A stretch of DNA of 57,006 bases, the filler included, from Dugesia japonica (taxonomy: Eukaryota), in the NCBI GenBank assembly GCA_001938525.1. It is 5 parts of 5 records of this genome, joined end to end, with 100 filler letters (N's around TTAATTAATTAA, not from the genome) between each part and the next. Parts side by side here need not be neighbours in the genome. Positions count along the whole stretch, not along the records: positions 40,756 to 57,006 come from MQRL01642553.1; 4 more parts are not named here. The stretch is one strand, 5' to 3'. Both the position numbers and the translations under genes were made by a program. Shown one piece after another: positions 12,521 to 53,830 of this stretch; position 1 is the stretch's first letter; every line of letters starts with the position of its first letter. The notes beneath the pieces are model-generated. The model saw nothing but the letters and a program-made list of their open reading frames with translations, made no database searches and was not told the DNA's origin.

Positions 12521-12539
12521 ACTATACATTGACAAAATA

Positions 12540-19437: not shown

Positions 19438-19626
19438 TTAATATTATTATTATTATTAATATTATTATTGTTATTATTATTATCATTATTATTATTATTA
19501 TCATTATTATTATTATTATTATTATTNNNNNNNNNNNNNNNNNNNNNNNNNNNNNNNNNNNNNNNNNNNNTTAATTAATTAANNNNNNNNNNNNNNNNNN
19601 NNNNNNNNNNNNNNNNNNNNNNNNNN

Positions 19627-21060
19627 CAAATAAATTGGTAGCTTCTAATCTCTTTATCTTCTCTTTAGTTGCTGTTGTCACTACTTTGGTCTTCTGACAA
19701 CTTTCACAACTACGAACTATTTTCTGTATTTGGCTCCACAAATTATTTGCAATATATTTTATTCTCATATATTCGTACACCTTTTCAACTCCTGCATGGC
19801 ATAATAATTTATGTATTTCTTCTATTGTTTCATGTAATTTGTCATCCAGAATTTTCATTTTCTTGATCAAATCTGTTTCCTCAGAAATATTTAAATTATC
19901 TTATTTTTCCTTTTCAATTATATTCAATAATCTCGTTTTAATCTTCTCTTTCTTGGAATCTTCATGTGACATTTGGCATTGTACACATACCTCACATCTT
20001 GGTCTAGATAAAAAATCTGCATTAGCATGCTGAATTCCTTTTCTATATTCCAAAACCATGTCTAAACTGCTCAGATAATTAATCCATGTCTGGAATTGTG
20101 ACGTAATTGGTTTCTTTAACGTCATCATGAAAGTTAGATCTTTGTGATCTGTTCTAAGAGTAAATCTTCTACCATACAAATAATGTTTGAAATGTATACA
20201 GAAATAAAAAAACAGCCAATAATTTCTTTCGTTTAATGCAGTAACCCTTTTCATGACTTTTCATTGAGTGTGATCCATAGGCAACAACTCTTTCTCTTAC
20301 TTCTTTAACTCTCTGTGACAATACTGCTCCAATTGTATCGAAACTGGCATCTGTATCTAATATAAATTCTTTGTTTACGTCTGAAAAACACAATATTGGT
20401 GCAGTCTTTAGAGATTTTTTCAGACCTTCAAAAGTATCGTTTATTTCATCTGTCCATTCCAATTTCTTGTTGCTTGTTCCATTAAAACAATATTATCCGT
20501 GTTTTGTTGAAAACGCCGATTTTTCCTGAGATACTTCTTCGAGCTCTACCTGATAGTATGCATTTCCCAAATCCATTGAACTGAAATATTTGGCTCCATC
20601 TAACTTATCCAGCATTTCATCAACATTAGGCATCGGAAAAGATTGTCTTTTCGTTACAGCATTCAATTGTCTAAAATCCAAGCATATTCTTATGTCTTTC
20701 TTTTCCTTTTTCCAAACACAGATCAGTGGGGTNNNNNNNGAAGAGTTGCATTTCCGGATAATATTATTCTCGAAAAGGTATTGGATAGCTTCTTCAATTT
20801 TAGATTCTAAATTTATTGGCGGTCTGTACGGTTTTACATTAATTGGTTCACCACTAGTGATTATTTTGTGACTTATCAGATGTATGCGTCCTACATACCA
20901 TTTATCTACCATAAAAGCATCTTCTTTACTTCCAATTATTTTCAATAACTGTTGATTGTCTTTAATCTTTAAAATATTTCAGACTCTTGTTAATCGCTCT
21001 CCTTTTTTAATTTGTCTCCCAAATTACGCTTCAATATTACAAATGTAATTTTCATTGTTT
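19627..21060 (-). pseudogene. Ty3/gypsy pol fragment (RT N-half, RNase H, integrase zinc-binding domain)
   Basis: RICLDFRQLN, FSSMDLGNAYYQV, FILDTDASFDTIGAVLSQ, FTLRTDH, NADFLSR, H..LCHAG...CESC. The RT YxDD segment is deleted. Confidence 0.92.
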
Positions 21061-24609: not shown

Positions 24610-25000
24610 AATTTTTAAAAATCTTGGCTTAAAACTCTTCCGATTTCCTCAAAACTAGCATCTGTATCAAATATCATTTAACTTTAATCATTTGGAAAAG
24701 CCAAGATAGGAGCAATAAATAACTTTATCTTTAACATTTGAAAACTATTCTCACATTTCTTTGTTAATTCAATGTTTTTTCATGGCCCGCAGTGGCTGCA
24801 TATAATATTACGGCAATGAGAGCGTATTCGCTTTTCTAAGATTTCCCCATAACTCATCAAGTTTGCTTTTCAAATGCATTGGTTATCTTCTAGGATTTAA
24901 CATTATTGATCCTTCTTTGGTTTCCATGTGATATTGCATTATTGTGGTAAATCCAAAATCAAATTTTGATATCATAAATATCACTATGTGTTCTTCTATC
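24610..25000 (-). pseudogene. Ty3/gypsy RT/RNase H fragment
   Basis: IAPILAFPND...FDTDASFEEIG.VLSQ. Confidence 0.75.
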
Positions 25001-25099
25001 AGTCTTCTAATTTCTTGATTGACATTCCTTTGAATATTAAGAACAATATTTTACTCTTTTTGGATTCTCAATAACTGGTTCAATAACATTATTTGAATC

Positions 25100-27110
25100 A
25101 ATAAAACCGACGCAATCACAGAGAAATTGTTGCCAAAATTATTTTCAGAGGCGATGATCTAGAGACGTTTATCAAACGGTGTGAAATATACTTCGAGGCG
25201 AATAACATCGTTATTAAGGAAGATCAGAAGAGCTTGATAACATGTATGCTTAATGAAGATTTAATGAAACCATATGTAAAAACATTAAAGAAGAAAGCAA
25301 ACGGATATCAAGAGAGATTGCGATTAGCTTTTGAGAGCAAGAGAGATGTAATAAAAGATTTGAAGAATCTTGTAGCTATCGGTGTGGTGATGAAAACCTT
25401 GAGGTGTATTTTAAAAAAAGGGAAAATTTGGTCGATAAGTCTTTAACAAATGGAGATCTGACGAAAGAAAAACTCTATTCAAAAATGCTAATAATTTGTG
25501 CTGCTAATAAAAAAGCAGAAGAAGAAATAATCATGCGAAAATTGGAGAAAGTAGAAGATATAAAAAAACATTTTCATTAGTTGTAAAAATAGAAAAAAGT
25601 GAACCTATTAATATAGTTAAGAGTTACGGAGGTGTAACACGTGGAGAACGTACCGGAGAGAGGAGAAAAAATATTGAGAGAGTAACAAAAAGAACAGAAC
25701 CACAGTGTTGGACATGACAGGGTTATGGGCACACAAAAAGAGTGCCCAAAAAACTTACAAGTGGAAGGTTAGATTTGTCTGAGGAGAGAGCATGTAAGAA
25801 GAAATTGTCCAATCAATAAGTCATCGAAATGTTTTGGGTGTGGTAACATTGATCATGTTAGAAGGATGTGTACAGAAATTGTATGCGGTAGATGCAAAAG
25901 ACTGGGTCACAGAGCGGAAGAATGTTATTCGAACATTAATAAACCAAGACTAAAAAACAGAAGATACAATTATAAAAGCGAACAACAAACAAAAGATTGG
26001 AGTCGTACCAAACGTATTCATGCCATTCGAGAAGAGGATGATGATGAAAATGAAGATATATTTTCTGGGAGCATAATAGAAAATGAAGATCAGAGAAGAG
26101 AATACCCAAAAGTCAGGGTTCCATCAGTAGAAGAGTTGGTTGGATACCGTTTGAAAATCCTCAAGAGACCGAGAAATGTGATAAGACGAGTAAAGTGAGA
26201 GAAAAGGTTTACAAATTCCTAAAAAGAGAAAGTTTCAATGATGCGGGAGTTAACAAACGAGAGGTGATAGAAACAATTGGAGAGAAACATGACGTAGAAA
26301 TTTCGTATGATAAGATGCAATGGAGACCTAGCATACCAGTGATGATCACTGGTGAATAGTTTAATTGTTTGCTAGATACAAGAGCAAGAATGAATGTAAT
26401 GAGCATGAGAAGATTCAGTAGACTTGGAGAAACAATGTTAGAGAAAAGCGAGAAAAGGAACGATTGCATTGCGCGAATACCAGCTCATTGGAGACAATTC
26501 GAAAGATACTTGTAGAAGTTGTAGTTCAGAGGTGTGTAAGGAAGTAACATTTATAATAATAATGAAACTAATACAAGATCTAAATGTTGGAGTAGAATTT
26601 CAGAATACTTTCGAGTATCACCTTCAAAAAAAGTGAGGGTAGACATCAATAGTCAACGAGATAAATTTGTTTGCAACATTGAGGCAAAATTTGGAAGGCA
26701 GCTACAGACGGGTGAACGATTAAGACATGCAATGGAGATTCTAGAAATTAACTAAGATCATAGATTGTCTTTAAATATTCAGAATAATGAAGATGTATTT
26801 ATGGCGGACAAATGGAACATTGGATGCACACACTTAACGAAGCATCTAATAATCACTAAAGAAAGTCCAATCAACGTAAATCCTTATCGTCAACCAATGA
26901 ATCTAGAAGAGAAGATTGAAAAGGCCATCAAGAATCTGTTTGATAACGGCATCATCCGGAAGTGTAATTCTCAATGGAATACGCCAATAATCTGCGTTAG
27001 GAAAAAGGAAAAAAGATATATGATTATGTTTAAACTTTAGACAGCTCAATGCAATAACAGAAAAACCAGCTATTCCTATGCCAAATGTAGACGAAATATT
27101 GGATGCTTTG
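25100..27110 (+). mobile_element. Ty3/gypsy gag-protease-RT fragment
   Basis: Gag GDDLETFIKRCEIYF, four CCHC-type knuckles (25705-25926), protease CLLDT.A, RT YRQP...IIRKCNSQWNTPI...LNFRQLN. Confidence 0.9.
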
Positions 27111-30360: not shown

Positions 30361-33135
30361 TTCTGAACATTAAGTAATCAATAACTTTCAGAATTCTCAA
30401 AACATTACATAGAAGTCAATCAAAATTTTCAAAGATTTACTAGAAGTCAGTTAAAGATTTCAAAAATTACAAGAGATCATACAAATTATTATTTATCACA
30501 CTGAACTTACATTCCATTACACAAAAACTAATTCTCAACTTGTAAAATCCTTTAGCCAACAAATAAAAATTACATTTTATTATACAAAAATTATATTTCA
30601 TCCCATAAAATTTTATCCATACCACTAAAATTATATAAAAGTCATTAAAATTTATAATATATTACATGGGAGTCAAGAAAACCTTTCAAAACATTGCATA
30701 GAAGTTATTAAAAAGTTTCATAAATTATACAGAAGTCAATAAAATTTCAATACATCACAGAGAATTGTAAAACATTACACTAAAAAAACATTTCATCTCA
30801 CAAAAACTTCATTCAATCATAGTAAAATACTAAGAAGTCACACAAAATTTCTAAACCACTATAAAAATTATAATTCATCATTCTTAAATTATATAAGTCA
30901 TTAAAAATTATTAAAAATAACATATAAATCAATAAAACATTTCAAACATTNTATATTTCTATTAAAAGGTTTTATAAATTACACAGAAGTATTCAACAAC
31001 ATTCAAAGATTACATAGAAGATAGTAAAATTTATAAGTCAACAGATAAAATTTCAAACCAACAAGTTTATGTAAAATATAGTTCATTACATTAAAACTGT
31101 TAAGTCAACGCTTTAAAATTATAATCAATCACACTAAAATTACATTTCATCACACATAAAATTATAAACATTCACATTAAAATTAACATTCATCATAATA
31201 AAATTACATCCTATCACATAAAATTCTAAGTCACCATGTAAAATACAAGATTCNTTATTNAAAATAAACACTTCGACACGGTAAATAATCACTTTGGCAT
31301 GAAANATTATAGTTTCATCACGAAAATNAGACACGCNATAATTAAATATACAGGTATCATCATTGGTATTACACGGGTCATCATAAAAAATCAGAGACAA
31401 CGACATAGAAAATATAAAATTCATTATTAAAAATAAAACTTTCATCAAAGAACTTAAAATTCATAGGGTTTTAGAATTTATCAGTTTAAATTTAATATGA
31501 ATAAAAATTTGACAGCCTAAAATTAATACAAATTAAAATTTATCAGCTTAAAATTAATATGAATCAAAATTAAATAGGTTTGAACAGTTTAAAATTTAAC
31601 AGTTTAATATTAATAAGTTTAAAAATTCTTCAGATTAAAATTCTGAAATTTTTTAATAATAAATTAATTTTAGTTTAACCATCTTAAATTAAAAAACATT
31701 GAATAAATTAATTTAATATTTATTGTTTAGCTGGATTATTTAAATTTGGTCGAAATAAAATAATATGTGCACCGATTGCCTATATAAGGAAGATGCATAT
31801 ATTATTTCATCTTTTTAATAATATAAAGTAAGATTTTTATTTAATTTGTTATATTATTAATTTTATTTTAGAATATTTTTGAAATCTTATGAATTATATT
31901 AGATATAATTTAAAACTTATTATGAATTATGAAAATAAATAAGGATTTATTTTTTTATTTAAATAGTTTTTATTTAAACGGCAATGATTTCGTTAATGAT
32001 ACTTTTTGTAATGGTTTTCATTAAACGATAGTAATTTTATTTTAAGTTAACCACTTTTAAAGTTAATAATTGGATTTGATTTGATTTTCAACTAATAATC
32101 TTAAAAGTTATGAATTCTTAAGGATATGATTAAAGTTATTGGAAATATAAAAACTTATAACTTCTAATGAACTTTGACAATAAATAAGGATTTATTTTTA
32201 TTTAATGCTTTATTAAATGGTAATGATTTTCGTAAAGATTTTCTTTAATGATTTAACTTAATGAAACTAGTAATGCTATACTGTAATGATAATAAGTAAA
32301 TATTTAATTTAAAGATTCATTTAATATTATCTAATATTTAAGTCGATCAAAGAAACATTTCAACATTTTGCTTAACTAAAAGAAAACGCTCATATAAGTC
32401 TTTTAATATTAATGTCGTCGGGAACATATAATATAAATGTTAATATAGCCAGGGCTGAATAATGTTGATGTTAATATTTCCCGGGTCTAACTAATGTTGT
32501 ATCTAATATTTTTCGGTGCGATTAATGTTCATGTTAATATTTCCGGGAGCAACTAATATTGATGTTAATATTTCCCGAAACCAACTTATGTTGTCTGTAA
32601 TATTTCTCAGCGTGATTAATATTGATGTTATTATTACCGGGCAGCGTTTAATATTGCTTGGTAGAAAATTTGCTTAACTACCTACAAAATTGAAGATTTT
32701 GCTTAATTTAAACAAAAATGTAATTTCCGGTGAATACGCAATTGTTAGGTTTGTTTAAACTTATGCCATAAAAATAAATATAATTGGAATAGTAAAACAA
32801 AAATAAATTAGAATTGGAATTTTAAAAAAGAATAATAAAAATTTCATCAATTAAAACAAAAACATATAATAACTAATTAATAAAAAAACATAAGCATTCG
32901 TCAATTAAAACTAAATAATATTACGTAATCATTACATAAACATTGCGTCATCATTACATAATCAACACACAAAACAATATCGGCCAATCAGTATTTCTAT
33001 ACCAGTTATGTAATCGCACAGCTAAAGTTTTCGACCTATCAAATTGCTGAAAACATGTGTGCGACCAATCTAATTCTAAACCAAAATAATTTCTTCACGG
33101 AGGGAGGTGGTTTAGTGCGAACCTATCTGTTTACT
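30361..33135. mobile_element. Non-coding, minisatellite-rich element ending in a Polinton-like AGT terminus
   Basis: ATAGAAGTCA-containing repeats (30400-31100), ~32-bp TAATGTTGATGTTAATATTTCCCGG repeats (32400-32660), TTACGTAA and CCAAT motifs. Terminus reverse complement AGTAAACAGATAGGTTCGCACT. The same modules occur at 52390-53830. Confidence 0.55.
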
Positions 33136-33799: not shown

Positions 33800-34660
33800 A
33801 TCCTTACGCTTTCTAAACCATTTTTAAAATCCTTAAAGCCCTCGGAATACGGAATATTTAAAACAACAAATTTTATTAATTTTATTAGATTTATCTGGAT
33901 CTTTAATAACATTTTCATCGTTTAAATTATTATTTGTGTTAAGAATAATTTTATCAATCGTTTCGTATGTTAATCTTTCTACAATTGATTTTGAATATTC
34001 ATTTTTATTTAACAAAGAACTCAAAGTTTGAATATTTACACATGACTTCAAAAATGAAGAAGATAAAATTTGTTATGTTTTAAATATTCCGGTTTCCGAG
34101 GGCTTTAAAGATTTTAAAAATGATTTGCTAAAATATTCAGTAAATCTTCCAAATTTTAAGATATTGTCCCAGTCTTTTAAAATTATAAGTGCGTTCAGTA
34201 ATAAGTCTAAGACTCCTTGTAGATTGGTTTCTAATTTTATTTATAAATATGAGTGTAATGCCACATACATTAGAGAGACTTCCCCTCATCTCTGTAAAAA
34301 TATTCAGGAATATAGTCGGTTAGTTAGTCGCAGTAATATTGCTAAATACAATATTCAATGTAAATGTCTCATAAATATCACTAATTTCAAAATTCTGTGC
34401 AGAAATTTTAAAGATTATTGGGAAAAAATCATGCGCAAAGGATTGATGATTAGACCACATGATCCAAAAATTAGTGTTCAAACTGGTGTCAATAAATCTT
34501 TATTGAATGTCTTTAATTAATTGGGATTTTATTGAGACTATCACATACTAGATTGCATAATGCGGAACTTAAGTAAGTATACTCTTTTCTTCGTTTTAAA
34601 TAGTTTGCCTGAAGATGACAGATATACTGTCGAAACTTGTTGTGTAAAATAAATATTTAA
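33800..34660 (+). mobile_element. 5'-truncated Penelope-like element (GIY-YIG end) with an inverted upstream segment
   Basis: ORF 34125-34520 has FIYKYECNATYIRETSPHL. The segment LNIP.SEGFKDFKN is present on + (34080) and on - (33860). Hammerhead at the 3' end. Confidence 0.85.
34604..34648 (+). ncRNA. Degenerate minimal hammerhead ribozyme of a Penelope pseudo-LTR
   Basis: TTTGC-CTGAAGA-T-GACAG-ATATA-CTGTC-GAAA-CTTG-TT: perfect stem II and core; the 3' strand of stem I is decayed. Confidence 0.65.
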
Positions 34661-34845: not shown

Positions 34846-37800
34846 TGTTAGACTTAGAAACATAGTTAAGCATAAAATATATATTTAAAGAACAAAATGA
34901 CCCTGTAACAAATATATATAGCTTTTGAGGAATTGATAGTGTAATAATATCTGAGCACTAAAACCATACACAAATCCAAACAGTCAATCACGCATTCCCC
35001 TAACATCACATACATATGTTAATTTAATTATAAAAAAGTTAATATGAAAATATTATAATATTCTTAGTCATATCTGACATTCTCACCTTTTAAAGTGTTT
35101 TAGTCATTCAATATTTCTTCTTATTTTTTTACCATTAATAAGTTTTAATTTAAAACTCCCATCATGTATTTTCTCTATAATTATTGCTGGTTCGTCATGT
35201 CTATTTTCATTTTTAAGAAGACTTTCTCATTTAATAAAAACTTCGTAACCAATACTGATTTTTCTAATTGTATCATTCTTTTTTTCTTTCAGGAACTTTC
35301 ATGATTATTTAAAATGTTTATTATTCTTTTACGCTTTAGATTTCTTTTATTTACATTTTGTATCATTTCTAACAATCCATTATTTGTGTAAATCCTTTCC
35401 AAAAACTATTTCAGCTGGAGATAAAATCGTTCTTCTTTGATTTGTGGTGTTCATTATAAATTCTATTTCTCGTAAATTTTCGGCCCAATCCTTAAAACCA
35501 ATATGAATTGTATCTCTAAACGTTCGAGATTGTCTTTCAATTATTCCATTACTACTGTGATGATATGGACTTGAGTATTGAATTTCACAATTAAATTCAT
35601 TAGCTAATTGTTGGAATAGATTTCATTCAAATGATTTTTCACGATCTGTATGTATTATCTTTCAAAATCCAATTATTTTTTAATATTTGAACAGTGGTTT
35701 TTTCGTCTTGATGTGAAACTGCATTGAGAGATATATATCCACTGATTTTATTAATTAAGATATATTAAATTCCATATAAAGGTTTCTTTAATGGATCACA
35801 AAAACCAATATGAATGATTTCAAGGATGTCATCAGCTGTAATACTAATAATGTTTTCTTTTTTTAAAGTTGTCTTTGTTTTTCTTAACTGACAATTTTTA
35901 CCACTTTGAGTAACCACTTTTTCAATTTCTTCAACACCTTTCATATCATAATTTTCTCTTACATATTTAAGATCCTATGTGACATAATGATTCGTGTTCA
36001 TTTCTTACTAATCATTTTCTGCATTCTGAAGAAATCCAATTTTTATTATTATTAGTCATTATAATTCTATTGGAAAACTTAAATTTTGATCTCATTTGAC
36101 AATCTTTTAAGTTAATTTTTATCATATTTATTTCTTCAGAGTTTTTTTGCCATTTATTACCATTTTTTTCAAACTCAATGGCATTCGGTTGAAGCAAAAT
36201 TGATCAAACTTTGTAGAAAATGCCATTTTGTATTTTAAACTTTCATCTAATTCAACCTGGTAATATGTATTACCCAAATATTTTGATTCATTCAAAGTTT
36301 CAGGCATTTCTCTTATATTTGGTATTGGGAACAATAGTCTCTCCGTTATTTTATTCAAAAATATAAAATCCAGCCAAATTCTAATGTCTTTTTTCTCTTT
36401 CTTCCAAACACAAACTAATGGACTATTCAACTCAGAATTACAATGTTTAATTATATCTTTATCTTCCATTTCTAAAATAGCCTTATAATTTTATCTTCTA
36501 AATAAAAAAGTTGTCGCCTATTATTTATTACAATTGAAACACCATCATGTGTTGATGGTGTTGTCTTACCTAAGTCCCTTCTTACGTACATCTTTCATAA
36601 AGATTTCTGTAAATCGTTCAGTTATATCTTTGATATTTTTATTCACTTAATTTTTAAAGTTCATAGTTTTTATTTCCAATATTTATTTATTAGTATAATT
36701 TAGCATTTTTAATTTGATATTACATTTAGATAAAAAATCAATTCCTGCAATAATACTGGGAGAAATATTTTCTGCCACATAAAACTTAATGTATTCTGTT
36801 TGATTATTAAGTGTAATCTTTAATATAATACTTCATATTATTTTTAGCTGACTTTCATTAGCACAAGTAACATTAATTTATTTACTTTTAATTTTAGTAA
36901 TATTTAATTTTAAAAATATTGCATGGTCAATCACATTAATCTTAGAACCAGTATCAAGTAAATAATCAACATTTAATTCGTTATTTAACTTTATTTTTAA
37001 ACATGATATTCTTAACATTTTATTATACACAATCTTATCTTCATAATTATTTATTAAATTTTCATTATTTAAATCCTTATTTAAAACTGAAATATCAGTA
37101 AGAAATAAAATTTTATCTATAAAATATTCATTTTTATATTCTAAAGTTTTGTTAAATAAATAATCAATCAACAAATATTTACATTCATTCAAACTAAATC
37201 ATTCAATTTTTTATAATTTTCATTAATAACATCAAACAAACATTCACAAGCATTCATATCACATACATTAGTGCTCAAAAAATTATTATCTAACCTAGAT
37301 TTATAGCTCCAACTGCATTCTTCTTCATTAGAGCTTTAGCATTTCTCGAATTATAGCCTTGATCTACTCCATCACTGAGACAGGCATGATGATCATCATC
37401 ATCATAGACATTCATTTAAAATCTTCGTTACTTGTTATACATTTGTCTTCTTTCAAGGCATTAATTAGATCTTTACCAAGGTCTACAGTCTTTAAAAATG
37501 ATTATCTACATCTTGTTTCAAAATCTTCAATCTTTGAATTGATTTGTTTATATAATTTGACTGCTTTTGTTGCCATAAAAGTTTGTGTAACTATTTTCTT
37601 TAACTGATTCAAAGTCATCGAAATTTCAAAAAATCAGTTTGTTTCTTTAATAAATTCTTCTATATTTCCTCCTATCTCAAAAGTCTTAGGTGTTGAAATC
37701 CTCGAGTTCAGGATTGACGTGGTCGCCATGTTAGACTTAGAAATAGAGTTAAGCATAAAATATATATTCTAAACACAAAATGATACTCTAACAAATATAT

Positions 37801-42392: not shown

Positions 42393-43699
42393 GTCTAAAT
42401 CATAAGAAATATTATGTTTTTCGGAAATTAACTTCGGTTTTTTATGTCCAGCTGTTATAGTCTTATTTTAAAGCAGTTTTAATTTATTAAATCAATACTC
42501 ATTACGATAATTTAAATATCTAGTTTGATTTTGTTTTAATATATCAAATTATTTTTAGATGGGATATATTTGTAAATGTATGAAATATTTTATTATTTTA
42601 TTAACGAAGAGTTATAGAAAATTTCGGTCAATGTTTGGAGAAACCCAGCACCAATGTCATATTACGTTTTTTATAATGTAGAATTTTAAAGAAAATCTTC
42701 ATTTCAAAGAATATTTTTCCATTTAAAAGAAAACTAAGAAAAATACACATAATTTTAGTGACATAAACGTTTGTATTTTAGAGATATATTTATTAATTTA
42801 TGAATCATGATGATCAATTAATCGGCTGCTAAAGAAGTTCAAATTTTGTATCTATTTTTTATACAGGTATGAAGAAAGATTTCATGGAAAGGTTTCAATG
42901 AATTAAACAGTCAAAATCTGTTGATAAACATTCAATACTCCAGCGCGCATAACGCATAACAAATAGAAGTAATTGATGGACAATTTCTACTTAACGCTAT
43001 GAAATAATTGTTTTAGAATTTCCATAAAATCTATGATATTCAATCAAGAAAAAACGCTTTGTCGTTTTTAATAATTATTTGTTCATTAATAATGACAGAA
43101 AAAAAATGAAATCCAGAAATTGATTTTTTAATGGCGGCATTCATAGATAAATTGGTTATTGTTATTATTGTTTATTAAACTTTGTCAGAAAAAACTAATA
43201 AAACGTTACAAAATAATTAAATTAATTAATCTATTTGGTTAATAAAAAATTTATTTCCTGAAATTTATCATGAGAACCTTTGTCTTTTTTTTAAAAAAAA
43301 TATTTCCAATAATCAATTTTATTTTTTAGAAGATAAATTTCTCGATTAAATTTCATAGAATAAAATAGAAGAGAAAACATGTCTATTATATATTTAAGAC
43401 TAAAATGTTTGTAATTTTAATTTTCTGAACTTTTTTTATTTAAAAATCTTTTTTTAAGTTCAAGAATATCATTTGAAGTAAAAACATATTTCTAGATTTT
43501 CGCACATATCCACCTTCTATTATTTTATATTATTTCAAAATTAATTTCATTTCTTACAAAACAAAAGAACTATTTATGACCAGTTACAATGATTAACACT
43601 TTGTTTTAATATTATTTAGAAATTGTGTTATTTTTAATTATAATAAATATATTATTGAAGAATGATTTTGAAAGTGACTTAACTGGCGACTACGCCGAA

Positions 43700-46355
43700 A
43701 ATGTTAATGTGTTGACATGCCAACAACGAAAATTAATTTTAGAAGCCTTGCCTAAGAATACTCAGGAGCTGATCAATTTTAATATAAAAAATTTGATGGC
43801 AAAGATGCTCCATAGGCAACAGCATAGCTGAAAGAAATCGACGAATGTCTCATTGTGAATGAATTAAGTTTGATAAGAATTTTTGATCTCCTTTTATCAG
43901 ATGAAGCCAGAGTTTTATGGAGAAATTATACGTCGAACAGAATTACGGAAGAAAAGGCAAAAAAGTGGTTTGTAGACACTTTTACAATAAAGAAATCTAT
44001 CACAGAATGATAATAAAGCTTGCAACAGTAAAACAAGAATCAGAAGAGAGATTTGCAACGTTTGAAATACGAGTAAGAAATTTAGATAACTGTGTATTGA
44101 ATTGAGTGTTATGTAATGACGAAATTGTAAATGATTTGCTGACAAAGAAAGTCAGGAATCAAAATTTGCGGGAGACGCATAAAACAAGACCAGAAATGAA
44201 AGTTGCCGAGAGATCTCTGACAAAGATTAATGAAGATAAAGAAATTTCCAACGCTTGCTGGAAATAAAGATATTTACGGAATACATAGAAAAAGCTATTC
44301 AAATGCGTTAAAAGGAGACCGAAGTAGTCATGACAGATGAGCTGAAAACCAGCCATCAATTAATTTTAAAACCAATAATAATGCGAGATATGAAAAAACC
44401 AAGAACGTAAATGTCAACGTATCAGAGAAATTTCAACGAGAGAATGTCACAACCGGTAATTACAGAGAACAGGACACAGAGTTTAAGTAGAAAACCGACT
44501 GTATCGATGAAACATATTGCAAGATGTCATTTTAACAGATGTAGAGGATTACCTGAACCACAAGAAGACAGATTTAGAGAAGGACGATGTTATTGTTGTG
44601 AAGAACATGGATATATGCGTTATCAATGTCCATTAAAAGATATATGTTTGATATTCTGAAAAGCTGGAAACAATTTCTGGCAATACTATCTTGTGCAAAG
44701 TCGATCTAATAGCGGAAATACTAAAATTCTATGCATCCAAGAACAACAAAAGGTGCAAACTGACGAAGATTAAAGCTTTGAAATGCATAATATTGTCAAA
44801 GGAAAAAACCAGAACAATTCCGTTGCATACATTTCGTCAGTGAAATTAGTTTAAGAAGGGATAACCCAAATCGAAATAATGAGGACAGAAGAAGGATGTA
44901 TGAAAAAGAAGACGGGAGAGAGTGGAGCAGAGTAGACGTGAATGGAGTAAAATTGGAAATGTTGTTAGATTCGGTAGCATCGATTACAGTTATGAGCGAA
45001 GAGTACTGGTTGAAGGTAGGAAAACCATCCTTGTTATGTTGCAAGGTAATATTAAATGGGGTATTTTCAAGCAGTGAAGAGAAGCCGTTAGGATGTGTAT
45101 AACTGAGCGTTAAATGGAATAATAAAGTGAGAGTTATTAAAATCGTAATAGTTAAAAAGATACGACCACGATTTATTGGTGGGATAGATGCAATGAAAAG
45201 TTTGGGAATAAAACTGATAAAAGTTAATAACATTGAAACTGAATGTTTGGGAAAAAACCATTCAAATGATGATAGAAAGAATTACGCATTAAATGTCTTC
45301 AAAAAACCAATAACAAAGATTTAAATGATCTAATTTCAAAGTTTGGTGAAATATTCATGGTGTCTAAGTTTGTTATAGGATAAAAAAAACAAGTAATACA
45401 TGAAATAAAAGTATTTGAAGATCTAATTGTTCAACATCCCCGGAGACAACCGAGATAATCAATGCACTTGGAAAAGAAGATTGACGAAATGATATAGAAC
45501 TTAATAGGTATTGGGGTAATTAGCAAATGTAAAAGTCCGTGTAATTCACCTTTAGTAATTATTGGGTAAAAAGATGGTTCGATAAGAATGTGTGTAGATT
45601 ATTGACAACTGAATATGATGACTGAAAAAGTTTCATTTCCGATGCCAGACATCCAGTTATTATTGGATTGCTTAGCAGGTGCAAAATATTTTCTTCAATT
45701 GATCTAGGACAAGCTTACTATTAGGTAGAACTATCAGAAAGCTCGAGAGATGTTACGGCGTTTAGTACAAAAGAGGGTCAATATTAGGTTCAATTGGATT
45801 CCATTTGGGTTAGCAACTGCATCTGCAACGTTTCAAAAGTTGATGCATGATATGTTGGCAGGGGTAATTTTTAAAGGTGTCATTGTGTATCTAGATGATA
45901 TATTAATGTATGAAAGAACGGTCGAAGATCATAATGAAATTTTGAAAGAAGTTTTTAACAGAATAAGAGAATCAGCATTGAGAATAAATCCAAAAGAATT
46001 TTAATTTTATCAAAAACAACTGGTCTTTTTGGGACACGCAATAAGTGCAGAAGGAATAAAATATACGAAACGAAGATTCAGGAAATAAAAAATGCCAAAT
46101 AACTTAAATGTTCATCTAAACTCAGATCTTTTCTTGGCTTAACGAATTACTATAGATATTTTGTCAAGAATTACGCCAGAATTGAAACACCTTTATACGA
46201 AGCTATTTTAGAATGTGACAAAACCTTGATGTGAAGAGAAGCACGCAGAAAAAGTTTTGAAAACTTAAAAGACAAGTTATGTAATGCACCAATTCTAGAT
46301 TACCCAAGAGAAAAAAGAATGTTTATCCTAGATACTGATGCATGTTTCCGAGCTA
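43700..46355 (+). pseudogene. gypsy gag-pol (zinc knuckle, protease, RT, RNase H N-terminus)
   Basis: CYCCEEHGYMRYQC; MLLDSVAS; RMCVDY; IPFGLATASATFQ; VYLDDIL (YLDD 45888-45899); FILDTDA, interrupted at 46355. Confidence 0.92.
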
Positions 46356-46490
46356 GGTAGATGTAAAATGACGGTTTCCACGCAAGGTTGTACCCTACGC
46401 TTGTAAATGCATCGGTTTACTTTCGTAATTATAAATAGTAAAATAGAATAGGGTAAATAATCGCGTGGAAACTGTCATTTTACATCTACT
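46356..46490. repeat. 135-bp terminal fold-back with (A/G)GTAG...CTACT ends
   Basis: GGTAGATGTAAAATGACGGTTTCCACGC (46356-46383) versus reverse complement of 46463-46490, AGTAGATGTAAAATGACAGTTTCCACGC (26/28 match). It starts exactly where gypsy RNase H breaks. Confidence 0.9.
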
Positions 46491-46555
46491 TAAGGTATTG
46501 TTTTGATTTTTGAATTTGGATTTTTTAAAGTATAATTAAATTTTTAAATAATAAA

Positions 46556-46795
46556 ATGAAAGAATATACTTGTAATAATTGTAAAGAAAAATTTGATGGG
46601 AAAGCAAAATTATATGAACATTTAGATAGAAATCGTTTTGACTTAAACTATTATAAAAATGTTTTAACTTATGAATGGCATTGTGGTTATTGTGATAAAA
46701 AATTAAAGATTAGTAAAAATAAATTTAAAAAACATAAAAAATTATGTCTTATAAATAAATTTAAACAAATAAAATTATACAAAAGAATAAATTGA
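46556..46795 (+). CDS. Small zinc-finger protein (79 aa)
   Basis: Open ORF with YTCNNCKEKF...LYEHL and WHCGYCDK...KKHKKLC. Confidence 0.65.
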   Translation: MKEYTCNNCKEKFDGKAKLYEHLDRNRFDLNYYKNVLTYEWHCGYCDKKLKISKNKFKKHKKLCLINKFKQIKLYKRIN

Positions 46796-46985
46796 AGATA
46801 TTCATAAATATTATATTAAAAGTTTTATATATATGAGCAATCATGTATATTATAAAAAATAATTTTTGTTATTATTAAGGTTCTGATTAGGTTTCGATTA
46901 TATTCAGTTAAGGTTCTGATTAGGTTCTATATGATTTTGTTCAGTTAAGGTACTGTATGATTCTGTAAAAACTTTTATTAATAAA

Positions 46986-47318
46986 ATGGTTAGTCAAGAA
47001 ATAACGCAAAATAATTTTTATAAAGTCTTAAAAAGTTATAATTTTATGGAAAATTCTGTCACAGGTTTTTGTAAACAAAATAATGTAGATGATAAAATAG
47101 TAATAAAATATTTAAGAGAATTTAATATTCCTTATAATAGAAAAAAGCATATTAAATTTTCAGAAAGAGATGTTAATGGTCAATATAAATCTTTAATAAA
47201 ACGATTTGATAAAAACCCAACGGACCCCATAAACAAACACAAAATCAAAATCCCAACGAGGCCCATTCTACCAGAGCAATTCAAAATCCAAAACCCAAAA
47301 TCGATTATCATAAAATGA
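46986..47318 (+). CDS. Orphan basic protein (110 aa), conserved with 580-802
   Basis: Open ORF with an AAAATG start; a homolog follows the other fold-back in this window. Confidence 0.7.
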   Translation: MVSQEITQNNFYKVLKSYNFMENSVTGFCKQNNVDDKIVIKYLREFNIPYNRKKHIKFSERDVNGQYKSLIKRFDKNPTDPINKHKIKIPTRPILPEQFKIQNPKSIIIK

Positions 47319-48045
47319 GTGATTTAGATTTTCTAAAAGTTGTTGAAAATACTATTCGAAAGAAATTANAGAATTTTATTTTTTCACTAAAGAAAATGGT
47401 TAGTAAAAAAACCAATGTTAATAAAATAGAAGAAGACTTGGGTATAAATACTTTATATGCCAGCATGAATAATAATTTTTCTAAACTTGAAAATTTTAGA
47501 ATTAGTGAAATTGAAAAATTTATCAATTATGAAATTACAAATAAAACAGCAAAAAAATATTTAACAATTTTAAAAGAAATGTATTTACAACTTGAAACCT
47601 TTAATGATAATGATAAGTTCAAAACATTATTAAGTATTATGGTTTCCAAATTTTGTGAAGCAGAATGTAAAGGGAAATTAATAACTCACTGTTCTAAAGA
47701 AGATGCAAAAATGTAGAAATTATAAAACAATTGGAAAGAGATTATCAAAAAGAAAGAGATGAATGTAATAAATTAAGAGAACAATTAAATTTAGAACAAA
47801 AACCAAACTTTATTGAATATCCAGGTTTGAATCTTTCATTAATAAAATGGGAAGATGAAGATGCAATTATTTCAAATCAGGATTGTATAAATTTTGCTAA
47901 AAAAATAAAAGAAAATAGTGATAATTTACGTGAAAGATTAACAAGAGTAAAAGTACCAGAAGAATATGAATATGATGTAAAAAGAGTTTATGTAGCCAAA
48001 AATGATTTACCAAATTATGAAGTAAAAACTTCCAATTCTAAATAA
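47315..48045 (+). pseudogene. Orphan ORF (47315-47716 plus in-register continuation 47731-48045 after a break)
   Basis: ATG overlaps the stop of the previous ORF; K/E/N-rich coding-like composition; no recognised motif. Confidence 0.45.
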
Positions 48046-48074
48046 ATTATTTTGTTATTTTTTGTCTTTAGAAA

Positions 48075-49385
48075 ATGGAGCTACGCAACATAATAGAAAC
48101 AAAACTTGATCTTGACAGTGATATTAATTTCCAACATTTATTTTTGAAAAATTCAATTAATCATTTAATGTTCTCTGGAGATATAGTTTTTCAATCTTTA
48201 CAATCTTCAAATCCATTAGACATTTCTTATTCAATGTTGTAGTATATAATAGAGATAAATGTAACAGATGAAAAAAAATAACTTTGGAAAATAAGTGGTT
48301 TCCAAGTTTATTCAAAACAATGAGATTAACTTTAGGATTTTCGGATGTAGAAATAATTCATGATCCAGGAATAAAATCAACAATATTAAATTTTATAACA
48401 ACCACTTCAACTTGTAAAAATATTTATTGTGAATCATCTGGATGGATTCCAGACACAAACAACGGAGATTTAGATGTAGAAGGTCTTGATGCAAATTTAG
48501 GTTTTTATAAAAGAAATAAACCTTTTAACTCAAAAAAGAAGTTTGTGGGTTGTTTTCCATTAAAATATTTATTTGGATTTATGCAATGCTACAATAGATT
48601 GTTTTATATAATACAAAGATTAAATTTATATGTAACAGACAAATTTATGATAAATTATTATTTTACGGTGATAAAAATAAAACAGCAACTTTAAAATTAA
48701 CAACTTTAGAATTATATTTACGAGAATGTAGATTATTACCAAAAATGGAAGTAAATCTGTTGGAAAGAATTTATTCAAATAAATCTATTCAAGTTTCGCT
48801 TTTAAATAGAATTACTTCAAGTACAACTTTAGATTCTGGAAATAAGTATTTACTTAAACTGAGTAATTTAGTTTATAAACCAAAATATATATTTATGGTA
48901 ATAAAGATGAAGGTATTTCTTATCAAAAGAATAATAATTTATTTATTCAAAGAATATCAAAAACTGTAAAGAAAAAAGTAGGAACTGAAGAAAAAGAAGA
49001 AACTACTTACCAAGCTCTCAAAAGTATTCAAATTTAATTAAATAATACATATTATCCAATAAATGAATGTAAATTTAATATTGATGATAATGATATGATT
49101 TTCCCGTATTTAAATTATATAAAATGTTGTAAAGACTTTTTCAATGAATCTCAGTTATCATTACAAGAGTTTGGAAATTTATACCCGATCTTTTGTTTTG
49201 ATGTTTGTTCCCAAGATGATAAATTAAATATTAATACTGTTGATGTAACTTTACATATAACTAAAGATCCTGGTTTAAAAGGAAGTTTGTGTTGGTGTAT
49301 TTTAGAAGAAAAACATATATAAATGAAATTATCAGATAGTAAAATTGTAATGGTTGAAAATACACGAGGAGAAAAATTAGTTTAA
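48075..49385 (+). pseudogene. Divergent Polinton-like double jelly-roll major capsid protein
   Basis: About 435 codons across frameshifts: NKWFPSLFKTMRL...VEIIHDPGI.STI; FPLKYLFGF; KPKYIF; LNNTYYP; F..LYPIFCFDV..Q. Confidence 0.75.
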
Positions 49386-49599
49386 TATTTGGACTGCGCA
49401 AGTAATCCCCAAATTCTCTAATTAGATTTTAAATAAAATGGATAATAAAAGTGTTTGTAAAAATTGAAATAAAATATTACTTAAGAAAAAATAAACCAAG
49501 ATATTTACGAATTTGTTTAAAGCGAGAGCGAGAGCAAGCTAGTGGTGATCGCGAAGCTCCTTCCAGTCACGAGCAAAAGCGAGCTCAAGCCGTAGGCGA

Positions 49600-49930
49600 C
49601 ATACAATCTTCTAAATTAACTTCTGCAATTTTAAAACCATTTACTTGGGAAAAATATCCGGGTGAAAGACATTTGTTTAAACATAACTATACTAGTCCAG
49701 GAACAAGATTAAATTTAAGATTAGACGAAAATAATAATCCTAAACCTGGAGAAGAACCAATTAATAGAGTAGTTGAAGCTGCTTTAAAACATGATTTTTT
49801 TTAGAAAATCTGAAGATTTAAGAGATTCATGATTTGAATAATTTTCCAAATCCAACTTCTTCTGAAAAAATACAAAGAGCTCTTGTAAAATTAGCAATGA
49901 AAGGTAAAATCGTCGCCGGAGGCTCCTTGA
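49600..49930 (+). pseudogene. Parvovirus-type phospholipase A2 domain (adintovirus PLA2X-like)
   Basis: PGERHLFKHNYTSPGTRL..RL...PINRVVEAALKHD, i.e. the YxGPG Ca-loop and DxxAxxHD motifs, each with one substitution. Confidence 0.85.
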
Positions 49931-49984
49931 TCGAAGGGATTCTTTTAGGTGCTGGTGTAAGCTCAAATACAGATTTAAATTTAA

Positions 49985-50782
49985 AAAATAAAGAAATACT
50001 ATCAAATGAATTACTTAAAGATTATAGAAAACCAAAACATTTTCTCAAAGTAATAATAAAATAAAAAGATAATACTTGAGGCTGTGATATTTTTGATATG
50101 GTTAAAAAATCAACCGAGGGTTATAGATATATTTTAGTTTGCATTGATTTATATTCTAGATATGGTTTTTGTGTATCAATAAAAAATAAAAATCAAGAAT
50201 CTTTACGAGACGCTTATGAAAATATATGTGAAGAAAATAATAGAATTCATGATTATATTTGGTTTGATAAAGAATCGGCAATTAGATTAAAATACTTTGA
50301 TAAATTCCTTAAAGAAAATGAAATTAATTTGTATCACACTGAAAACGAAGGTAAATCAGTTTTTGCTGAAACATTTATTAGGACTTTAAAAACTAAAATT
50401 TGGAAATACTTTACTCTAGTCGGAAACCAAAAAGGGAATAATAATTTATTACAAAGAATTGTAAACGAATTAAATATAACATTAATGTAACTCCAAAAGA
50501 AGCTAGTGAAAATTCTGAGAAAATAAAAGAAATAATCGAAGATCACAACCATGAAAATGATAACTTTAGTTTTAAACCGAAATTTAAAATTGGAGAAAGA
50601 GTTAGAATCTTTAAATATAAATATAAATTTGAAAAAGGTTTTACAGCCAAATGGACAAATGAAATATTTGTTGTAACCCAAGTATATAATACAAAACCAA
50701 TAACATATGGAATTACAGTTTTAGAAAATGAAAAGATTTTGGGTAGATTTTATAGTAATGAATTAAAAAAAACTGTTTTATA
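49985..50782 (+). pseudogene. Polinton-type rve integrase
   Basis: LSNELLK; W.CDIFDM; GYRYILVCIDLYSRY; IWFDKES; KSVFAETFIRTLK; PKFKIGERVRI; FEKGFTAKWTNEIF; GRFYSNEL. Confidence 0.92.
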
Positions 50783-50806
50783 AATTTAAAATTAATAAAT
50801 TTAAAA

Positions 50807-51199
50807 ATGAATTACAATTCTTTCAATTTTATTTTAAAAGATGCTCTAAATGAAGAATCAAAAAATCTTTTAAAAGAAGAAATTAAACAAGAATTTAAAA
50901 ATGAATTAGAAGAAAATAATCATTTAAAGAAATCACTAGCGGCTGTAAATTTCAAAAATCCACCTGAATTATTTTGGAAGTGGATAACTATATATAAACC
51001 TAATGATGAAAGAGGTAAATCCTTGTCAGATGAAGAAATAGATGAAGAAATTAATACAATAATCAACTATATTAAAAATTTTAACTTTACTGATATGGAT
51101 ACATATAGTATAGGTATTTTAAATTTAATAGTAAATAAAATAAATGATCCACACACAAAAAGAAGAATGATTTCCAATATGAAGGACCATATCATATAA
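50807..51199 (+). CDS. Orphan ORF; the last ~10 codons come from the junction with gypsy sequence
   Basis: 130-aa open frame after INT. From ~51175 another frame encodes the gypsy GPY motif. Confidence 0.45.
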   Translation: MNYNSFNFILKDALNEESKNLLKEEIKQEFKNELEENNHLKKSLAAVNFKNPPELFWKWITIYKPNDERGKSLSDEEIDEEINTIINYIKNFNFTDMDTYSIGILNLIVNKINDPHTKRRMISNMKDHII

Positions 51200-51470
51200 T
51201 GAAGTTCATATCAGATCGGCAAGTAGAAATTCAATTTCCTCACAGTTCAAAGTACAGACGAATAGAATGGCTAAAGACGTGGAAAGCATTTAGAAGAGAG
51301 GGAGAATTACAATGATTAACACTTTGTTTTAATATTATTTAGAAATTGTCTAATTTTGAATTATAATAAATATATATATATGAAGACTGATTTTGAAAGT
51401 AATATAAATTGACAAAAAACTTTTATAATTTAATAATAATAATATAATTAGAATTATATATACATATATA

Positions 51471-51565: not shown

Positions 51566-52388
51566 CAGTTAAACCTGTCTATAAGAAACACTAGAATTGA
51601 CAAAATACAACTTGTTTGCTAAAGAGGTATAAGAAACAATTATGTAAGAACTTTTATTATCCAATGAAATTACAATACGGTTTTACTTCCTAATTATGTA
51701 ATCAAGCATTGTAAGACTTTGTGAATTTCTCTCCGACAATAGTTCATCTTTGACTTTGTATATTATGTTCAATATTTATTGAATATTTTTCAGAAAACCT
51801 TTTCTAATTTTTGAAATGATAAATATGGATCATATTGAGTTATATCGTCATTTTCAGAGGTCAAATTCTGCATTGACTCATTTAAAGAGTTATTATCAAC
51901 TAAATCTGAAATTCATGTATTAATGTTTGAAATGAAGTCATCATTGTCATATTCCAATGAATCATATTGCGTAAAGTCATTATGATAGCTGTTACAAATA
52001 CTTAGGTCTGTATAATCGATATGTGCGTTTTTGAAAGAATGGTTGAAAGATTTATTAATTACCTCAGTAGAAACTGCGTATATCATTTTAACATTTTCAA
52101 CTAAAGATTCGTAATCAGTATTTGTGATTTCAGATTCAAAAATTAAATTTGGTGACTGAATCTTTTTATAATGCTGCTTAAAAGACCAAATTACACCTTG
52201 ATCTAATGCCTGAATTTTGGAAGAAGTTTTTGGTGGTATGTACAATATATCAATATTGGAAAACTCAATCCACACAGGATAGACTGGTGCATTATCAATA
52301 ATCAAAAAAATTTTCCTTTGGTCTTTAATTAAAGACTGATTGAAAGTTTTCAACCAATGGATATTTCAAAAATATCTAAAGTCATCCA
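51566..52388 (-). mobile_element. pogo/Tigger (CENP-B-like DDE_1) transposon, 3' half
   Basis: WMT, LIIDNAP, YIPPKTSSKIQALDQGVIWSFK. TIR TA-CAGTTAAACCT at 51566. Truncated at 52389 by an AGTAG-terminated element. Confidence 0.9.
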
Positions 52389-52389
52389 G

Positions 52390-53830
52390 AGTAGGTAGAA
52401 ATAAGCGCACTGGCACAACCCCCCCAGAGACAGAAAATTTTTTGCGGTGAAAGAATATACATGTACTTAGTGGAACGATAATATGTGTGCATATGATTAC
52501 GTAATATTGGTATATGAATTTTATGTGTATTTAGCGGTACGATTAAAATAGATAAGATGTGTGCACGTGATTACGTAATCGTGGCTTAAGATTTTTACAT
52601 GTATTTAGCGAGAAAGATTTGATTACGTAACTGTTGCGCGTTTTTTGTATGTGCCTAGTTAAATCTTTTTTGTTTACGATTATATTATTTTTATTTATTC
52701 ATTTATTTTTTGATGAGTCAAATGCATTAAACTAAATTTAGTTTTTAAATTGATAGTTATTTATTATTTATTGTTTAAACGAGGTTAAATTATTTATATT
52801 TTATTTGAATTAAGTGAAATTAATTATTTTTATTTAAATTAAACAAAATAATGATTTTTTTAAAGTAAATTAGTTGAAATTAATTATTTTTGTTTAAATT
52901 AAAAGAAATTAACTANTTTTTAAGTTAAATTTCCCTCGAGGAATATTAAGATTAGTCAAGCAGTTCCATATTAATATAAACATTAGATGCTCCATCGAAC
53001 CGACATAATATTGACGTTAATACCCTCCGAGCTACCATAATATTGATATTAACATTAATTTTCTCAGGGCTGACAATATATTAACATTAATATCCGCTGA
53101 GCAGACATAATAATAACCTTGATATCNNNNNNNNNNNNNNNNNNNNNNNNNNNNNNNNNNNNNNNNNNNNNNNNNNNNNNNNNNNNNNNNNNNNNNNNNN
53201 NNNACCTACAAAGAAATTACATAAAAGTCACTAAATATTTTTTAAAAAATGCATAGAAGTAACTAAATATTTTAAGAAAATGCAAAGAAGTCAATAAATA
53301 TTCTATAAATTGCATAGAAGTCACGAAATACTTTAAGAAAATGCATGGAAATCCCTAAATATTTTATGACATTTCAAAGAGATCACTAAATAATTCATAA
53401 AATTGCTTAGGAATCATTAAAATCTTTAAGAAATTGAATAGAAGTATTTGGAAATGTATAGAAATGAAATTGATGTACAGGAAAATTAACCAATAATTCT
53501 TAGAAGTTATTAATAACTTAATAAAAGATATGTAGTGTATTGAATATTCAATGATAAAACCAAAACTTTCATTATAAAAACTAATATTTTATTGGTAAAG
53601 CCAGTATTTTCATGATTAAACCCCTGTATTTNATAAAACCCATATTTTCATGATAAAAACATTGTTTCCATGATAAATCCTATATTTACCACCACCAAAC
53701 CGACATTTTCATGATAAAACCCCTGTTTTTGTTAATGAAATCATAAATTTATCTATTGAAACTAATAATTTCAATATTGAGATCAATAATTTTAATGATA
53801 AGATTAGTATTTTCAATGTTAAGTATAATT
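52390..53830 (+). mobile_element. Left end of a non-coding Polinton-TIR-like element with minisatellites
   Basis: AGTAGGTAGAAATAAGCGCACTGGCACAACCCCCC start, three GATTACGTAA, ~32-bp TAATATTGATATTAA repeats, ~32-bp GCATAGAAGTCACTAAATA repeats and TTTCATGATAAAAC repeats. Confidence 0.6.

Follow-up and report, generated by a model that had tools for sequence, protein, structure and literature searches.

Is the composite at 43582..51409 of this Dugesia japonica DNA a retrotransposon that has acquired the virion genes of a DNA virus, or the fossil of one element inside another? The original prediction, made on the window (the whole stretch of 57,006 nucleotides that was analyzed), described an LTR-bounded element in which a gypsy part, a Polinton-like cassette and a gypsy integrase tail follow one another. 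This anatomy was borne out by LTR alignment, Pfam matches, and alignment to gypsy relatives: between the LTRs, Ty3/gypsy protease, reverse transcriptase (RT), and the start of RNase H are followed by 4.8 kb of Polinton/Maverick DNA and then by the gypsy tail. The best account of the locus, to which we give a probability of roughly 0.87, is the nested insertion of a Polinton into an older Ty3/gypsy element followed by one deletion. This was also the history considered simplest in the original prediction, and it is supported by the hairpin at the 5′ junction, the younger-looking cassette, and the normal gypsy relatives. Because every identifiable gene in the composite is interrupted, the locus is most likely an ordinary genomic fossil and not a new hybrid mobile element.

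The host element is delimited by direct LTRs at 43582..43684 (ends AGTTA...TAACT) and 51305..51409, which align with 94 matches and 9 mismatches in 103 columns and with 2 gap columns (blastn E = 4e−33); blastn found no third copy in the window. All features described here are on the plus strand except the unstranded target-site duplication (TSD), TGACC at 43577..43581 and TGACA at 51410..51414, whose copies share 4 of 5 bases. Its length is 5 bp, unlike the 6 bp of Polintons (PMC4196379). A 13-nt polypurine tract (51292..51304) adjoins the 3′ LTR and, like the matching LTRs of about 103 bp and the TSD, had been called correctly. The primer binding site held up in part: GGCG directly 3′ of the 5′ LTR gives a TGG start that overlaps the final LTR base (43684..43700), a position that suggests the role of this PBS-like site. 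LTRs, TSD, PBS-like site, and polypurine tract together characterize a Ty3/gypsy host element.

Inside the 5′ LTR lies a heavily interrupted probable gag remnant (43780..44720). Its position and translation, with a degenerate zinc-knuckle-like motif near 44590-44630, agree with the gag gene proposed earlier, but none of the 3 pieces scanned with Pfam matched a gag or zinc-knuckle family. The pol remnant (44893..46355; pol residues ~4 to 490) is 55 to 57% identical to the gypsy proteins P0004, P0006, and P0007 and contains RT (RVT_1, E = 6e−15), a weakly matching protease (E = 0.014), and positions 3 to 38 of the 100-position RNase H profile, about a third. It carries 10 stops and 4 frameshifts, 14 lesions in all. 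The surviving parts keep the PR-RT-RH-INT order with a GPY/F motif, a hallmark of gypsy/ERV elements (PMC2836005), as in a Ty3/gypsy element; with these lesions and ~490 pol residues missing between the junctions, a complete open RT-RNase H-integrase, as in an autonomous LTR element, is absent.

Comparison with gypsy relatives, which are families of ~50% identity and not copies from this genome, locates the missing DNA. Alignment to the intact relatives (6 of 13 shown) stops at residue 484-490, which corresponds to window position 46354, and picks up again at residue 976-987 (51154-51157), so that the predicted loss of the RNase H C terminus and integrase core stands. What resumes is the C-terminal GPY/SH3 tail of the gypsy integrase (51146..51312; certain from 51157 and probable from about 51146), 71% identical to P0004 over 51 amino acids (E = 2e−18), which confirms it as the sole surviving part of that integrase. 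In P0004 and P0007, the tail likewise runs into the start of the LTR. Hence, the 3′ junction, which had been placed at ~51170, lies at or before 51157 and probably near 51146. Of the 13 close relatives, 11 are complete RT-RNase H-integrase polyproteins and two are shorter; a capsid or PLA2 domain is listed in 0 of 16 gypsy matches. Just upstream of the tail, a stop-free frame of 145 codons (50762..51199), whose end runs over the gypsy tail, had no homologue among 43 candidates (lengths 79 to 254 only) and is presumed to be a Polinton open reading frame (ORF) cut by the deletion.

Could the two junctions be an artifact, with a gypsy-plus-Polinton junction joined to the gypsy 3′ end of another locus by misassembly of short reads or ectopic recombination? 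The window is a gappy, repeat-rich scaffold with 38 N runs or single Ns. However, the interval has no N run and just one single N, essentially as the original prediction had stated, its flanks share 4 of 5 TSD bases as one insertion predicts, and neither junction has a long repeat able to mislead an assembler. We regard this explanation as quite improbable. Of 24 sequencing runs listed, 11 contain part of the stretch, none as much as half of its words (best shares 0.33, 0.30, and 0.27), and no RNA run containing it is among those listed; these shares carry no weight in the arguments made here.

The 5′ junction (46355/46356) coincides with the first base of a 135-bp hairpin (46356..46490) with AGTAG-type ends and falls within a residue or two of the end of gypsy homology. 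The hairpin is far stronger than expected (z = −8; 0 of 200 shuffles as strong; −34 kcal/mol). Such hairpins occur at 3 places in the window, all with AGTAG-type ends. The hairpin at 999-867 is homologous though diverged, continues into homologous DNA, and adjoins a piggyBac transposase interrupted at profile position 249 of 349, which repeats the pattern of one element inserted into another. The third hairpin is ~0.9 kb away from DNA with 73% identity to 11174-11393, a stretch next to a Polinton-type protease. From these copies, the hairpin at 46356..46490 appears to be a Polinton end. An independent MITE was rejected, as no TSD surrounds the hairpin and, in both copies, the homology extends beyond it on one side. 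A search of 19 metagenome loci gave no convincing match, only short and AT-rich ones with a best E of 0.003, and the exact junction pattern had 0 matches in JGI metagenome contigs, where the host may be absent. A hairpin as Polinton terminus was not found in the literature searched; hairpins of 125 to 135 bp at element ends may merit attention. This is the only putative Polinton end present in the composite, and because the far end and the Polinton's own TSD are deleted, integrase-mediated insertion is not directly demonstrable.

The cassette that follows begins with a small C2H2 zinc-finger-like ORF (46556..46795; zf-C2H2_2, E = 1.4e−4, below the Pfam cutoff) and AT-rich ORFs of no assigned function (46935..48045), two of which were scanned and gave no Pfam match. 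Within the latter, 47030-47189 shares 77% identity with window 752-595, a segment adjoining the homologous hairpin. A whole-length but broken major capsid gene (48075..49380) has 3 stops and 3 frameshifts. All 7 of its relatives scanned match Pfam DJR-like, and the predicted model of one, P0018, matches the PBCV-1, iridovirus, and mavirus capsids (E ~1e−14); as modeled on this relative and not on the broken copy, the cassette capsid is a double jelly roll (DJR). The DJR capsid and a Polinton-type rve integrase identify the cassette as Polinton/Maverick DNA and bear out the claim of a co-oriented Polinton-like cassette after the RNase H start. It is not a complete Polinton: pPolB, packaging ATPase, cysteine protease, and penton gave no match inside it, while packaging ATPase, protease, and penton genes adjoin the capsid relatives in metagenome loci L002, L010, and L014. 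None of 19 capsid-bearing loci, most of them 1 to 2 kb, has an ORF matching the gypsy part of the window, and scans of IMG/VR contigs with the rve piece, the capsid alignment, the PLA2-integrase alignment, and the gypsy pol confirmed no relative.

Downstream of the capsid lies a single broken Polinton gene (49438..50783; 60% identity to P0122; 5 lesions) that encodes a parvovirus-type PLA2 domain at ~49595-49800 and, fused to it, an rve integrase at ~50080-50783. The PLA2 piece itself has a Pfam E value of 0.049 (0.90 by Atlas features); we assign it because it is 80% identical to P0122 over 65 columns and because its relative in L008 matches the PLA2 family with an E value of 8.5e−9. Both domains are carried by 103 of the 120 relatives listed, and of 121 proteins, 111 extend across the PLA2 part as well as the integrase part in the window. 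Judged from these sequences, PLA2 and rve are one ancestral Polinton gene in its native state and not a replacement tailored to a retroelement. The idea of separate PLA2 and integrase modules, and of PLA2 as a gene of its own, was therefore rejected, since relatives carry both domains in one protein. A gypsy origin of the rve domain was rejected too: it is 30 to 52% identical to 14 Polinton-type cores and 21 to 32% to 11 gypsy cores, and it groups with the Polinton-type integrases in a tree (split 100/100), on a long end branch. What had been taken for an integrase replacing that of the gypsy element is the C-terminal half of this Polinton gene.

These results bear on the more dramatic proposal, an autonomous hybrid in which the Polinton rve takes over the role of the gypsy integrase, with capsid and PLA2 forming an env-like infectious module. 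The rve domain does sit just upstream of the gypsy tail, and the LTR ends (AGT...ACT) share their terminal three bases with the hairpin ends. However, the RNase H match covers only about the first third of the profile and reverse transcription could therefore not be self-supported, the TSD has 5 bp and not 6, the rve gene reaches its own stop ~370 bp short of the gypsy tail and is separated from it by another ORF, and the packaging ATPase, protease, and penton of L002, L010, and L014 are unmatched in the cassette. DJR capsids package DNA, whereas retroelements assemble on Gag. Nor is a captured ORF open beside a working pol, with 6 lesions in the capsid gene, 5 in the PLA2-integrase gene, and 14 in pol. 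Truncation of RNase H and the length of the TSD largely refute such a hybrid, which we consider exceedingly improbable, and an env-like mobilization of capsid and PLA2 is unlikely and has no positive support: the rve belongs to the Polinton's own gene, no gene remains functional, and the TSD measures 5 bp.

The decay of the two parts gives a modest contrast in age. There are 10 in-frame stops in 459 pol codons and 5 in 777 cassette codons, a rate ratio of 2.5 to 3.7 (two-sided p = 0.014 to 0.117 across the mutation models tried; not significant, p = 0.12, when only C>T/G>A changes are allowed). Frameshifts do not differ (4 and 6, p = 1.0), and all lesions together give p = 0.06. Because pol carries more stops, the data suggest that the Polinton insert is younger than the gypsy pol. 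In the comparison of cassette decay with LTR age, which the original prediction proposed, the 5 stops seen are also compatible with presence since LTR integration, for which 7.3 (range 3.3 to 14) are expected.

This last number fits another history, in which the chimera arose at another locus and came here as a single unit, mobilized in trans by an intact member of the family. A 7.8-kb LTR-to-LTR RNA would have been packaged, reverse-transcribed, and integrated as a LARD-like nonautonomous derivative with Polinton cargo. The cis signals (LTRs, PBS-like site, polypurine tract) are all kept, the cassette is co-oriented, its length falls in the range seen for LTR elements, and the excess pol stops could reflect decay before the trans-mobilized jump; trans movement of LTR-bounded cargo is known from the cases treated in PMC6431247. 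Against it, no second copy is known, and the cassette has 31 sense-strand AATAAA hexamers versus 9 in gag-pol, in part a consequence of AT content, which together with the −34-kcal/mol hairpin would be expected to hinder a full-length RNA. It also adds a step, because nested insertion and deletion are needed first either way. We consider it unlikely.

Repeat-rich eukaryotic genomes routinely undergo nested insertion with subsequent deletion, and the window, which holds further gypsy and Polinton remnants, makes nesting easy. The composite is most likely a dead one-off that arose in three steps. We hypothesize that an ordinary Ty3/gypsy element, of ~4.5 kb judging from its relatives, integrated via a gypsy-type integrase and left the 5-bp TSD flanking its LTRs and pol. 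Later, a Polinton/Maverick would have entered the RNase H region end-first, with its presumed terminal hairpin, which has a homologue in the window, forming the 5′ junction. One deletion, most parsimoniously a single event, would then have taken the remaining Polinton (polymerase, ATPase, protease, penton, and far end) and ~1.5 kb of gypsy pol (RNase H C terminus, integrase zinc finger, and core), so that Polinton DNA now abuts the gypsy integrase tail. The Polinton rve lies near the lost gypsy integrase only because its gene was one of the last before the deletion. All parts have decayed since, and no functional enzyme or capsid is encoded.

Among known systems, the gypsy families P0001 to P0013 (pol of ~1,000 to 1,040 amino acids) share the order of LTR, PBS, gag, PR, RT, RH, GPY tail, polypurine tract, and LTR; they differ from the composite, which has lost ~490 pol residues and has 4.8 kb of Polinton DNA instead. 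Foreign DNA between LTRs is also seen in env or additional-ORF capture (errantiviruses, Burro, rotifer elements) and in LARDs, and captured ORFs typically sit downstream of an intact pol, according to PMC6431247. In the composite, in contrast, pol has been destroyed and the cargo is broken, with no second copy known; of these comparisons, only that with LARDs might hold. Teratorn joins a piggyBac transposon and a herpesvirus in one unit and is described as keeping transposition activity (PMC5601938, PMC10175614), whereas nothing in the composite indicates activity or copies. As most likely read, the composite is of minor importance and a clear example of nesting that mimics gene capture. If it had been copied in trans, a retrotransposon would have spread DNA-virus jelly-roll capsid and PLA2-integrase genes through the host genome, a direct route of gene flow from Polinton-type DNA viruses into retroelements; no case of an LTR element spreading Polinton-type virion genes as a unit is described in the literature searched.

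The cassette resembles Polinton/Maverick elements (Polintoviricetes) in its DJR major capsid, parvovirus-type PLA2, and rve integrase, as these are presented in extracts of PMC8502044 and PMC5803895, and its capsid relatives adjoin pPolB, protease, and A32 ATPase genes (L002 and L014). It differs in the self-complementary hairpin of 125 to 135 bp at the element end and in being a truncated, dead copy. The same extracts include PLA2X in the virion module of "Alpha adintovirus" and describe the PLA2 as residing on a small virion protein (PLA2X or "CAP") apart from the integrase; in the present gene and its relatives, by contrast, it forms the N-terminal portion of the integrase ORF. This PLA2-integrase fusion, in which glycine motifs lie on either side of the PLA2, is widespread among the relatives and was not found in the literature searched. 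Because the PLA2 sits N-terminal in the integrase and is set off by these motifs, the sequences suggest that entry enzyme and integrase may be packaged as a single precursor, which the viral protease then cleaves into its two parts. This widespread fusion may prove more useful than the composite fossil itself.

The element at 43582 to 51409 is, with a probability of roughly 0.87, a dead nested insertion. A gypsy element would have inserted first, a Polinton would then have entered its RNase H region, one deletion would have trimmed the nested pair, and decay would have followed. The original prediction of an LTR element carrying a virus module in place of its integrase core was right about the structure, which is real and is best read as nested insertion, not as capture.

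The frame of the gypsy element is preserved. Alignment of its LTRs (43582-43684 and 51305-51409) gives 94 matches against 9 mismatches, plus 2 gap columns, a divergence of 8.7% (95% interval, 4 to 16%), and no third LTR copy lies within the window. A PBS-like site with a TGG start overlaps the end of the 5' LTR, a purine tract of 13 nt directly adjoins the 3' LTR, and the flanks read TGACC on the left and TGACA on the right. Matching LTRs, target site duplication (TSD), PBS-like site and PPT are present as had been claimed, and so is the lack of an N gap, the interval holding one single N and no N runs. A misassembly or ectopic joining, which the gappy scaffold might favor, fits poorly with a TSD common to both flanks, and we regard it as very unlikely. 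The TSD is 5 bp long (4- and 6-bp readings mismatch), against 6 bp for Polintons according to a passage of PMC4196379, so a standard Polinton integrase did not carry out the last integration. The cis signals survive, and the chimera might have been copied in trans as an LTR-bounded derivative, and derivatives with other cargo are described in a passage of PMC6431247; however, no second copy of the chimera is known, and this history is unlikely. Titles and abstract starts in the literature gave no description of an LTR element mobilizing a DJR capsid.

Within pol, Pfam identified the RT (E-value of 6e-15) and, weakly, a protease; of the 100 positions of the RNase H profile, it matched only 3 to 38. 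None of three gag-region pieces matched a gag family. Searching longer proteins with the RT region returned 16 matches among 524 candidates, none with a capsid or PLA2 domain listed. Thirteen have 49 to 53% identity, and 11 of these are complete polyproteins (RT-RNase H-integrase) with 1,000 to 1,038 aa (the remaining two have 666 and 467 aa). In the six relatives shown, which belong to other families and are not copies from this genome, homology stops at residue 484 to 490 (window position 46354) and restarts at residue 976 to 987 (51154-51157). The RNase H is therefore truncated and the integrase core absent, as proposed, with about 490 pol residues lost. The tail is 71% identical to the gypsy relative P0004 across its last 51 residues; GPY/F is a mark of gypsy and ERV integrases (PMC2836005, in part). 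The gypsy tail does resume at the 3' junction, which had been placed at about 51170; the position lies slightly to the left, probably near 51146, where a short match in the neighboring frame puts it.

The cassette is Polinton DNA. Its capsid piece (48272-48691) has 52 relatives, together spanning 48096-49379, and all seven capsid relatives scanned match a Pfam DJR-like family. The predicted model of one relative, P0018 (pLDDT of 88), matches the capsids of PBCV-1, an iridovirus and mavirus at E-values of about 1e-14. Cassette-type capsids occur at 19 metagenome loci, most only 1 to 2 kb long, and an ORF resembling the gypsy part was found at none of them. In L002 and L014 the capsid is accompanied by pPolB and protease-like genes, and in L014 also by an A32 ATPase. 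Gene order differs from the window: in L006, L008 and L015 the integrase precedes the capsid, and in the window it follows.

The PLA2 and integrase domains, previously listed as a module, are both present, in one gene and not separate: PLA2 is fused N-terminally to a Polinton rve integrase (49438-50783). A single 390-aa ORF in L008 (L008:2-1171) carries PF08398 and rve and aligns across 49595-50774; both domains occur in 103 of the best 120 of 2,236 matches (P0069-P0188), the nearest having 60% identity, and of 121 proteins compared with the window, 111 align to both its PLA2 and its rve part. A tree of 26 rve cores groups the cassette core, on a long end branch, with 14 Polinton-type rows and splits it from 11 gypsy rows at 100/100. 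The gene terminates at its own stop (50783), and the frame between this stop and the gypsy tail had no homologue among 43 candidates. An autonomous gypsy-Polinton hybrid, in which the cassette would serve the retroelement, is extremely improbable: RNase H is cut, rve sits in a separate gene, the TSD has 5 bp, and ATPase, protease and penton are missing. Both PLA2 motifs are spaced 20 to 50 residues apart in 77 of the 120 relatives; among these 77, a GG/GxG motif stands just before the PLA2 domain in 60 and just after it in 72, compared with 0 and 1 for two control stretches. Such motifs resemble adenovirus-type protease sites, and the pattern suggests that the protein may be a virion-packaged precursor cut by the element's own protease. 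Polinton PLA2 domains are described on small virion proteins in parts of PMC8502044, PMC5803895 and PMC3671162, and the main text of PMC11161782 does not mention PLA2. Titles, abstract starts and passages gave no description of the fusion, though it may be visible in the gene maps that supplement PMC8502044.

A hairpin of 135 bp forms the start of the cassette (z = -8; 0 of 200 shuffles as strong). A scan of the whole window found hairpins of 125 to 135 bp at three places (867-999, 5658-5782 and 46356-46490), all with AGTAG-type ends, without a surrounding TSD and close to Polinton-like DNA. By appearance they are ends of elements that can pair with themselves. Polinton ends start with AG or AGT; terminal hairpins at such ends were not found in titles and abstract starts. 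Two of the hairpins are homologous: the cassette hairpin has a diverged counterpart at 999-867, the arms of which changed together and after which homologous DNA continues. The third is close to other Polinton-like DNA. The second element (1-999, minus strand) also holds a cysteine-rich ORF (66-668), for which Pfam gave no match, and its hairpin adjoins on the outer side a piggyBac-type transposase (1000-1401; PF13843, E-value of 3e-14) truncated at position 249 of the 349-position profile. Because both elements interrupt another transposon at this shared end, as integrase-driven insertion predicts, we take the 5' junction (46355/46356) as an element end. The LTR ends (AGTTA...TAACT; 43582-43586 and 43680-43684), of a kind seen in insect errantiviruses, share terminal AGT/ACT with the hairpin ends, probably by chance or because the integrases share their chemistry. 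Between a zinc-finger ORF and the next ORF, at 46875-46955, are three direct repeats, short and imperfect (19 to 23 nt, spacing of 33 to 37 nt).

By frameshift-aware alignment with three references for each gene, pol (1.46 kb) contains 10 stops and 4 frameshifts, the capsid gene 3 of each, and the PLA2-integrase 5 lesions. Stops are denser in pol (10/459 codons) than in the cassette (5/777), with a rate ratio of 3.4 to 3.7 (p of 0.014 to 0.029), or 2.5 to 3.7 across four mutation models (p of 0.014 to 0.117). Frameshifts do not differ (p of 1.0), all lesions combined give a p of 0.06, and the five cassette stops fall inside the 3.3 to 14 expected for presence since LTR integration. The counts are only suggestive of a cassette that may be a younger insert than the gypsy element.

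Other repeats in the window include Polinton remnants with pPolB fragments (1736-2986, plus strand) and with protease, penton-like and rve pieces (10813-13612, minus strand), and a duplicated Polinton-like piece (6681-6902, 73% identity to 11174-11393). Decayed gypsy elements of different families lie at 19574-20978, 24624-25068 and 35098-36988 (minus strand) and at 25105-27110 (plus strand), matching the gypsy relative P0001 at 26 to 61%; two of them retain integrase-region sequence. To the right of the element is a pogo/Tigger-type DDE_1 transposase remnant (51913-52365, minus strand; E-value of 1e-13). An ORF at 34032-34520 (plus strand) resembles a Penelope GIY-YIG piece by eye, with no Pfam match in support. 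Minisatellite arrays with a 31-bp period occupy 30377-31039, 31475-31626, 32410-32638 and 53211-53463, and many (TAA)n tracts adjoin N gaps.
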